Shown one piece after another: positions 47,277 to 47,482 of a stretch of DNA of 64,000 bases. Source of the stretch: a virus; the IMG/VR virus record IMGVR_UViG_3300029454_000001, positions 1 to 64,000 of that record, one strand, 5' to 3'. Positions within the stretch are counted from its first letter, which is position 1. Every line of letters begins with the position of its first letter. The notes beneath the pieces were generated by a model. It was not told where the DNA came from. It was given only the letters and a program-made list of their open reading frames with translations, and did not search any database. The translations under genes were made by a program, and so were the position numbers.

Positions 47277-47367
47277 TTGCCCCGACAGGATTTGAACCTA
47301 TAAAATTATTTGCAGTGAAGAACACAAACATGTTCTAATCGGTTTTCCGTAACCGATAACCGGGGCA
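47277..47367 (-). ncRNA. tRNA-shaped RNA (91 nt) with a non-canonical anticodon hairpin
   Basis: UGCCCCG / CGGGGCA acceptor, T-arm AUAGG-UUCAAAU-CCUGU, 5-bp D-like stem AUCGG/CCGAU. The anticodon position is occupied by AGAACA-UGUUUG-UGUUCU (6-nt loop) followed by an unpaired 17-nt segment. Confidence 0.5.
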
Positions 47368-47368
47368 G

Positions 47369-47482
47369 TGACGAGGGATGGGTTCGAACCACCAACCTAT
47401 GCCTTGTAATGGAGTAAATTGCTGTTATAGTCACAAACATGACTAATATTCTCATTGCTCTGTCCAATTGAGCTACCTCGTC
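47369..47482 (-). ncRNA. tRNA-shaped RNA (114 nt) with an extended, bulged arm replacing the anticodon arm
   Basis: Canonical GACGAGG/CCUCGUC acceptor, D-arm GCUC-AAUUGGACA-GAGC, T-arm GGUGG-UUCGAAC-CCAUC. Between them: outer stem AUGAG/CUC(C)AU with a bulged C, an internal loop, and inner hairpin UAGUCA-UGUUUG-UGACUA. Confidence 0.5.

Follow-up and report, generated by a model that had tools for sequence, protein, structure and literature searches.

Phage-encoded Ro60 proteins accompanied by adjacent Y-like RNAs have been documented in mycobacteriophages, CcrColossus, phage G and the Thermus phage phiLo (PMC4201824, PMC12135203), and both the existence of Ro60/Y-RNA pairs in phages and the mimicry of tRNAs by Y RNAs are already known. 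In phiLo the Ro60 homologue, phiRo60, is composed of a HEAT-repeat ring and a vWA domain, its Yrl1 and Yrl2 RNAs are encoded just upstream, and both binding and a complex with PNPase were shown experimentally (PMC12135203). In the Felixounavirus Bas63, gp130 is Ro60-like by structure, adjoins a tRNA cluster and is reported to counter the Ppl defence; the authors of that work (the PhageMaP preprint, PMC11482910) speculated that some annotated tRNAs are Y RNAs, and identified no RNA partner. Here we analysed a 64,000-nucleotide stretch of viral DNA (positions 1 to 64,000 of the IMG/VR record IMGVR_UViG_3300029454_000001; hereafter the window), in which two tRNA-shaped RNA genes, RNA-A and RNA-B, precede a gene of the DUF2828 family. 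We propose that RNA-A and RNA-B are probably non-decoding tRNA mimics acting as Y-RNA-type partners of the Ro60-like DUF2828 protein of this phage.

The two RNA genes are located on the minus strand, inside a tRNA gene cluster, and are separated by a single base (47368). RNA-A (47482..47369, 114 nt) is a tRNA body carrying a 40-nt insert. Its 5' half reads GACGAGG UA GCUC AAUUGGACA GAGC A AUG; the insert (47452..47413, minus strand) follows as AGAAUAU UAGUCAUG UUU GUGACUA UA ACAGCAA UUUACU, and the molecule ends with CC AUUACAA GGCAU AGGUU GGUGG UUCGAAC CCAUC CCUCGUC A. These parts form a 7-bp acceptor stem (GACGAGG/CCUCGUC), a canonical D arm (GCUC-AAUUGGACA-GAGC), a canonical 7-nt anticodon loop (AUUACAA, at 47410..47404) and an equally canonical T arm with the loop UUCGAAC. 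The Rfam tRNA model recognized RNA-A with 46.7 bits (gathering score 29), accommodating a 51-nt insertion in the anticodon region, and ARAGORN with default settings called neither RNA-A nor RNA-B.

An initial annotation of this DNA, in which the acceptor stems, T loops and hairpins quoted for both genes, and their spacing of 1 nt, agree with the sequence, had placed a shared hairpin in the position of the anticodon arm of the two RNAs. This description is accurate for RNA-B. In RNA-A, by contrast, the anticodon stem is present and split: the insert enters between tRNA positions 29 and 30, and the hairpin is a side branch of the anticodon stem. When 37 distinct RNA-A orthologues were aligned, the split stem AUG|CC with GGCAU formed 185 of 185 possible pairs. 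The outer helix AUGAG/CUC(C)AU with a bulged C, which had been drawn initially, was discarded, because its AUG/CAU portion formed only 80 of 111 pairs; the partner of the AUG located 3' of the D arm is the CAU within GGCAU, not the one chosen earlier. The inner GAG/CUC survives as the base helix of the insert. The split stem, ATG|CC/GGCAT in the window, appears as GTA|CC/GGTAC or CG|TCC/GGACG in relatives, with compensatory changes at 27:43 (A-U, G-C, C-G and G·U) and at 29:41 (G-C, A-U and U-A). The Levitt pair 15:48 also covaries, being A:U in 23 orthologues, G:C in 9 and A:C in 5, which suggests that RNA-A probably retains the L-shaped fold. In more distant phages the same kind of insert was found at the equivalent site (27/28 to 29/30) of tRNA bodies with Thr, Pro, Phe, His, Asp, Lys, Asn, Ile and Gly-type loops.

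RNA-B (47367..47277, minus strand, 91 nt) is built on a tRNA-like scaffold. Its 5' half, UGCCCCG GU U AUCGGUU ACGGAA AACCGAU U, is followed by the hairpin and the 3' part of the molecule, AGAACAUG UUU GUGUUCU UC ACUGCAA AUAAUUUU AUAGG UUCAAAU CCUGU CGGGGCA A. The acceptor stem (UGCCCCG/CGGGGCA) and a T arm (47301..47285) with the loop UUCAAAU are present; the position of the D arm is occupied by a 7-bp hairpin with a GG-containing loop (47357..47338), which is strongly conserved as CGGUU-AYGGNA-AACCG, and that of the anticodon arm by the shared hairpin, with ACUGCAA standing where the variable loop begins. The minimum free energy (MFE) fold of RNA-B contains exactly these four elements, namely the acceptor stem, the 7-bp hairpin, the shared hairpin and the T arm (z = -3.8). 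Across relatives the four helices were paired in 93.6% of cases, as compared with 33-55% in slid controls, and compensatory changes were seen at 12 pairs. The Rfam tRNA model gave RNA-B no score.

The element common to both RNAs is a hairpin, xCAUGUUUGUGx, followed by UAACAGCAAUU in RNA-A and by UCACUGCAAAU in RNA-B. We refer to the hairpin together with its heptanucleotide tail as the module. The copy in RNA-A (47445..47419, minus strand) comprises the hairpin UAGUCAUG-UUU-GUGACUA (47445..47428), the dinucleotide UA and ACAGCAA (47425..47419); that in RNA-B (47336..47310, minus strand) comprises AGAACAUG-UUU-GUGUUCU (47336..47319), UC and ACUGCAA (47316..47310). Relatives collected from IMG/VR through the adjacent protein, and then through a DNA pattern blind to the protein, provided 67 distinct module instances, whose consensus is N4-CAUG-N(0-14, usually 3)-GUG-N4' + NN + AC(A/U)GCAA. 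Among 52 distinct 31-nt instances, the 7-bp stem had standard pairs in 98.6% of the cells, against 31-43% in slid controls; its four lower pairs all showed compensatory changes, while the top C-G, A-U and U·G pairs were invariant. The early proposal that the module is under selection and its stem covaries is thus borne out. A conserved hexaloop, as claimed at the same time, is not: the middle of the loop varies (UUU, UCU, UUC, CUU, up to 14 nt), and CAUG...GUG is the only invariant part of the hairpin. A pseudoknot between the loop and the tail was rejected by eye, as the tail is constant while the loop varies. In both RNAs the module is the most conserved portion, and it occurs in unrelated tRNA bodies. 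A covariance model of the module retrieved RNA-A (45.9 bits, E 1e-9) and RNA-B (40.4 bits, E 3e-8) from the 64-kb window, the remainder of which contained no further match better than E 0.3.

The DUF2828 gene (47124..45673, minus strand, 483 aa) starts 153 nt downstream of the end of RNA-B, on the same strand. Its product matches Pfam DUF2828 and DUF7788/vWA, as well as PHROG 850, annotated as 'RNA-binding protein'. The AlphaFold2 model of this protein, built on 49 homologues, reached a pLDDT of 93, and the protein models confidently as a Ro60 fold, that is, a TROVE ring plus a vWA domain. The five top full-length PDB matches given by Foldseek were the Ro60 structures 1yvr, 1yvp, 2i91 and 9nep and the Thermus-phage TROVE protein 9kop (E 3e-7 to 1.5e-5, TM 0.47-0.57); 9kop ranked second-best, and the matches after these five covered the vWA domain only. 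Residues D293, S295 and S297, which form the D-x-S-x-S sequence of the vWA domain, were invariant among homologues, a pattern that we read as MIDAS-type. The initial annotation had mentioned Ro60 and its Y RNAs solely as a tentative analogy; this turned out to be its best lead, as the adjacent protein models as a Ro60 fold and the module tracks the gene family. That family is large: it comprises 6,553 clusters at 50% identity, with full-length homologues in at least 703 cultured-phage records, and its annotations run from 'hypothetical' to 'RNA-binding' or 'Ro-like RNA binding protein'.

The scan of IMG/VR with the protein-blind DNA pattern identified 119 loci, about 6 of which are chance matches in coding sequence. 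In nearly all the others a DUF2828 gene (59-100% identity) was found within ~1 kb downstream, on the same strand. The gene order is kept in more than 100 related phage and prophage loci, which answers the concern, raised initially, that the two RNAs might be unique degenerate pseudogenes. The hosts are Lachnospiraceae bacteria; for example, a prophage of Diplocloster hominis CSJ-3 encodes a protein with 84% identity. A set of 80 close relatives, taken from Lachnospiraceae genomes (63-84% protein identity), allowed us to count the heptanucleotide: ACAGCAA occurred 83, 39 and 16 times in the three 250-nt bins preceding the start codon, over a background of ~1-3 per bin elsewhere and 0-2 on the antisense strand.

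Most of the copies upstream of the DUF2828 gene are not hairpins. They have the form 5'-G(U/G)G-N4-NN-ACAGCAA-(median 44 nt)-N4'-C(A/C)UG-3', which is the helix of the module with its loop end opened and its other end closed. This permuted, Y-type helix covaries across the family: GUG was found with CAUG in 144 cases, GGG with CCUG in 103, AAG with CUUG in 5, and mixed combinations in 2. The window contains two such elements, both on the minus strand and in the mRNA leader of the DUF2828 gene. RNA-C (47272..47212), 5'-GUG-AUGC-UU-ACAGCAA-(37 nt)-GCAU-CAUG-3', has the terminal helix in its MFE fold, and the helix is kept in relatives in which AUGC is changed to GUGC. RNA-D (47203..47139), 5'-GGG-ACGC-UU-ACAGCAA-(41 nt)-GUGU-CCUG-3', has a 3' strand that ends 1 nt before the Shine-Dalgarno sequence AAAGGAG (47138..47132, as read from the sequence) of the DUF2828 gene, whose start codon is at 47124..47122, all on the minus strand. 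A Y-type helix was present upstream of the gene in 80 of the 80 close relatives, the last one typically ending 14-16 nt before the ATG (quartiles; range 14-103). Elsewhere, many Y-type elements enclose a T arm, and some enclose an anticodon-like hairpin in addition.

The association extends to much more distant proteins. At 31-42% protein identity, a 7-bp helix strand, NN, ACAGCAA and a partner strand still flank the DUF2828 gene. One IMG/VR locus (L084, 42% identity) contains five such helix-ACAGCAA units among eight normal tRNA genes, and two of them enclose, within the terminal stem, a T arm, a loop-closed acceptor stem and a D arm; this order of arms is the circularly permuted tRNA-like architecture described for YrlA (PMC4201824). 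In two other IMG/VR loci, both at 36% identity, two units lie directly after the DUF2828 gene (L088), or one unit is followed by a tRNA with an insert at 28/29 (L089). Seven of the eight cultured phages sampled, Bacillus PJN02, Listeria VEfB7, Staphylococcus BE02, Campylobacter CP30A, Enterococcus VRE9_4, Mycobacterium UPIE and E. coli wV8, carry 1-5 units in intergenic positions next to the gene, all on the same strand as it and with perfect 7-bp helices. The homologue of wV8, a Felixounavirus, is 32% identical to the protein of the window, and three units follow its gene inside a tRNA cluster; the DUF2828 gene was present in all 251 matching Felix O1-like records, which are mostly Felixounavirus. 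From this genus-wide conservation, the gp130 protein of Bas63 would be a DUF2828 orthologue. In UPIE the DUF2828 gene is annotated as 'Ro-like RNA binding protein', and the Rfam YrlA model matched its locus with 39.8 bits, below the gathering score of 69, the match beginning directly after GGACUC-UA-GCAGCAA. No other Rfam family accounts for the helix-ACAGCAA units.

Some features of these related loci are recorded here as side observations. In the Listeria phage vB_Lino_VEfB7 (L374), a near-threshold match to the ROOL RNA (1457-2008, plus strand; 87.4 bits, gathering score 99.1) lies among tRNA genes and immediately precedes three helix-ACAGCAA units, with the DUF2828 gene ~1 kb downstream. 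Two 'tRNA-OTHER' (pseudo) features of wV8 (L371, 5542-5629 and 6855-6925, plus strand), located in the tRNA cluster after the DUF2828 gene and near the units, are candidates for further tRNA-like partner RNAs. In one locus (L273, minus-strand coordinates 941-4398) a module tRNA and a leader-type GUGACAC-UU-ACAGCAA are followed by an open reading frame (ORF) for a TnpB/OrfB-like transposase in place of DUF2828; this may be an insertion that displaced the DUF2828 gene.

A helix with a 3' single-stranded ACAGCAA, its circular permutations and its tRNA-derived parts, beside a protein of the Ro60 fold, follow the logic of the Ro60/Y-RNA particle, and for this reason we interpret all four RNAs, RNA-A to RNA-D, as Y-RNA-type partners of the DUF2828 protein and see in RNA-A and RNA-B the YrlA idea in an unpermuted form. 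From the structures, covariation, genomic linkage and protein fold observed, we infer a model in which the DUF2828 protein would recognize a short helix, N4-C(A/C)UG / G(U/G)G-N4', plus a single-stranded ACAGCAA located two nucleotides after the second strand. The unit of helix and heptanucleotide occurs in four topologies. In RNA-A it is a closed hairpin that branches from the anticodon stem, on the 5' strand, the tRNA being otherwise complete; in RNA-B a closed hairpin replaces the anticodon arm, and ACAGCAA stands at the position of the variable loop. In RNA-C, RNA-D and most relatives the unit forms the terminal 5'/3' stem of a small RNA, which is the classical arrangement of Y RNAs, and in distant relatives, as in YrlA, this stem surrounds a circularly permuted tRNA-like domain. 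The tRNA-shaped part might confer stability and tRNA-type processing of the ends (by RNase P, RNase Z and CCA addition), and might dock tRNA-binding factors, so that the RNA would tether the Ro60-like ring to partners or substrates during infection. As RNA-D abuts the ribosome-binding site, the DUF2828 protein could also feed back on its own translation. An anti-defence role of this system is suggested by the Bas63 preprint, the conservation of the gene in Felixounavirus and the units found in wV8.

The likeness to the YrlA-type Y RNAs (Chen et al. 2014, PMC4201824; RF02553) lies in several traits: small RNAs encoded beside a gene for a Ro60 or Ro60-like protein, on the same strand, with several different ones per locus; a protein-binding helix, predicted in our case, with an adjacent short conserved single-stranded motif; and a tRNA-like domain that has T and D arms as well as the tertiary pairs of tRNAs, represented in RNA-A by the match to the tRNA model and the Levitt pair, and in RNA-B by the T arm and the D-like hairpin with its GG loop. 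The distant locus L084 and UPIE share the permuted architecture, the YrlA match of the latter being sub-threshold. Unlike YrlA, RNA-A and RNA-B end in an acceptor stem and have a loop-closed binding helix, pairing of the ends being predicted for RNA-C and RNA-D only; the anticodon arm of RNA-A is complete; the putative partner protein falls in Pfam DUF2828 and not in TROVE; and the conserved motif following the helix strand is ACAGCAA instead of GNCGAAN0-1G. With phiLo the window shares a phage protein of the Ro60 fold with RNAs immediately upstream, in which a 5'/3' stem flanks a conserved motif, and the crystal structure of phiRo60 is 9kop itself. The phiLo RNAs differ in having a CGAA motif and in lacking a tRNA body, and the experiments made in that phage contrast with a window system known from sequence and models.

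Several observations weigh against this interpretation. The Pfam TROVE model did not match the protein of the window, and a sequence search of the PDB gave no sequence-level match between it and solved Ro60 structures, the likeness to Ro60 being structural only, at the TM values given above. RNA-A to RNA-D lack the canonical GNCGAAN0-1G / CGAA motif of the stem region of Y RNAs, GNCGAAN0-1G was also absent from the Y-type elements of UPIE and wV8, and the Rfam YrlA model found nothing in positions 45000-49500 of the window, even at E 10. The pairing of the protein with the RNAs is proposed from co-location, fold and analogy. The module-bearing tRNAs of five loci (L174, L258, L266, L276 and L281) had no DUF2828 gene in the fetched flanks, two of them (L174 and L258) adjoining terminase and portal genes, and the Vibrio phage nt-1 had no helix-ACAGCAA element within 3 kb of its DUF2828 gene. 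Many of the loci belong to one abundant gut phage lineage, so that raw counts overstate the independent support, which is provided by the distant loci and the cultured phages of three phyla. Finally, the anticodon loops of the module tRNAs are mostly canonical (7 nt, U33, purine 37), which would be needless for a pure scaffold and leaves some room for an anticodon-dependent role, as a decoy or as a tRNA matured by excision.

Whether RNA-A decodes can be judged from its orthologues. A decoding tRNA has a continuous 5-bp anticodon stem and a 7-nt loop; RNA-A is interrupted at 29/30, and RNA-B has no anticodon arm. In close orthologues of RNA-A the triplet is UAC, AAC, UCC (with A33), GCU or ACU, or else the loop has 9 nt, while a second orthologous set of module tRNAs has GGU, GGA or GAU; Ser-type triplets appear on class-I bodies, with variable loops of 4-5 nt. 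What is preserved is the size of the loop and its flanking A/C-U...A-A, but not the triplet. This drift argues against a decoding role, and RNA-A is unlikely to be a decoding tRNA. Two tRNA models given by ARAGORN were also discarded. In intron mode, the program fitted RNA-A as a 'tRNA-Stop(tta)' whose variable arm is long and which is interrupted by a 32-nt intron, a structure with a stem mismatch and C37 that breaks in orthologues; at lowered stringency, it described RNA-B as a tRNA with an 8-nt loop ('gttt'), although the corresponding loop varies between 0 and 14 nt, and the Y-type copies have it open.

A different explanation is that RNA-A and its relatives are true pre-tRNAs, in which the module is a protein-dependent intron or a removable 'cage' that the Ro60-like protein and/or an RNA ligase help to excise, yielding functional phage tRNAs. 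Deletion of the insert leaves a canonical 7-nt loop on a perfect 5-bp anticodon stem, in Val, Thr, Pro, Phe, His, Asp, Lys and Asn bodies, the insert site always lies in the 5' strand of the anticodon stem (27/28 to 29/30), and a small RNA ligase gene (43240..42653, minus strand; phrog_14301, E 3e-55, with a weak match to Pfam RLIG1) is located 2.4 kb downstream in the window. RNA-A resembles intron-containing tRNAs, such as those of archaea, with bulge-helix-bulge (BHB) introns at non-canonical sites, or those of bacteria, with group I introns, as in all of them a tRNA gene is interrupted and removal restores the cloverleaf. Yet there is no BHB in RNA-A, where the junction AUG|AG...CU|CC runs directly into a helix without 3-nt bulges; 40 nt, without a group I core, are far too few for a group I intron; and Rfam intron and ribozyme families gave no match at E 10 within 45000-49500. 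The hosts are bacteria of the Lachnospiraceae, and we know of no tRNA-splicing endonuclease in bacteria. The ligase was found in just 12 of the 80 close relatives and in none of the distant ones, so it was rejected as a core partner and is regarded here as an accessory gene. The module also occurs where splicing would be impossible, in the replaced arm of RNA-B and, outside tRNAs, in the terminal stems of Y-type and permuted tRNA-like RNAs, and some of the drifting anticodons could not decode at all (Ser triplets on class-I bodies, an A33, loops of 9 nt). We therefore regard the pre-tRNA explanation as quite unlikely. A related possibility, to which we give a smaller chance still, is that the Ro60-like ring holds the module tRNAs of the RNA-A class as genuine tRNA bodies, either with their intact, fast-evolving anticodon loops serving as bait or decoy for host defences that target anticodons, or as a store of caged pre-tRNAs from which the insert is removed with the help of the protein. 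The caged case, if true, would be the first instance, in a virus of bacteria, of a tRNA excision system that depends on a protein.

The helix-ACAGCAA unit could instead be mainly a cis signal, such as a nuclease processing site or a translational operator, in a single polycistronic tRNA/mRNA transcript, and not the handle of stable trans-acting RNAs. In favour of this, the units keep strictly to one strand and cluster in the 750 nt that precede the gene, and the last of them adjoins the Shine-Dalgarno sequence. In a promoter and terminator scan, in which sites were no more frequent than in shuffled sequences, none stood above chance between the RNAs and the gene. For RNA-D, such a function is compatible with our proposal. 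As a general explanation it is unlikely, given that in wV8, UPIE, the Staphylococcus phage BE02 and the locus L088 the units are found 3' of the gene or amid tRNA genes and not in a leader, and that the units embedded in full tRNA or tRNA-like folds (RNA-A, RNA-B and those of L084) have their own acceptor stems and T arms, which fits excision as stable small RNAs. That RNA-A and RNA-B are decaying tRNA pseudogenes sharing a duplication remnant might seem plausible from the failure of default ARAGORN to call them and from the missing anticodon arm of RNA-B. This view is hardly credible when compensatory changes preserve all of the helices, when the module is the best conserved part of both RNAs and recurs both in unrelated tRNA bodies and across phages from several bacterial phyla, and when the order of the genes is maintained at over a hundred loci. 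The interpretation of RNA-A and RNA-B as tRNA-mimicking partners of the DUF2828 protein is the one that we favour.

The surroundings of these genes hold other unusual elements, reported here in their own right. In the same tRNA cluster, a third tRNA-shaped oddity (47773-47841, minus strand) combines a good acceptor stem (CGGAAAG/CUUUCCG) and a good T arm with D and anticodon regions that are aberrant; it scores 27.1 bits with the Rfam tRNA model, just below the threshold, and lacks an ACAGCAA module. On either side of it are ORF-free gaps of 158 and 291 nt between tRNA genes (47615-47772 and 47842-48132, minus strand), and the stretch 47625-47772 folds no better than shuffled sequences (z = -0.26). 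A 'tRNA-Ser(UGA)' (45542-45613, minus strand), called both by ARAGORN and by Rfam (62 bits), closely follows the DUF2828 gene; with its 72 nt, short variable loop and U:U mismatch at 1:72, it is not a normal class-II Ser tRNA. Far from this region, positions 20000-20067 (minus strand) match the Rfam int-alpA RNA (RF02996) with 49 bits (gathering score 35.8).

In the literature and the Rfam release that we searched, there was no description of the ACAGCAA signature, of its generality across DUF2828 or of the hairpin-closed forms embedded in tRNAs, and literature searches on DUF2828 or on phage tRNA introns returned nothing relevant. DUF2828 proteins are widespread, in Felix O1-like coliphages, in phages of Listeria, Staphylococcus, Enterococcus and Campylobacter and in cluster-L-type mycobacteriophages, with thousands of further protein clusters from metagenomes, and their function is poorly defined. 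If our interpretation is true, a searchable signature, consisting of a helix strand, NN and ACAGCAA, would assign partner RNAs to this family, and many 'pseudo-tRNAs' and intergenic gaps in phage tRNA clusters would have to be re-annotated. The graft on an intact tRNA, the replacement of an anticodon arm and the terminal stem of permuted tRNA-like RNAs look like intermediates in the origin of a tRNA-mimicking Y RNA from a tRNA gene. Furthermore, a speculation already published, according to which Y RNAs concealed among the tRNA genes of a Felixounavirus cooperate with its Ro60-like anti-defence protein, would become directly testable in E. coli.

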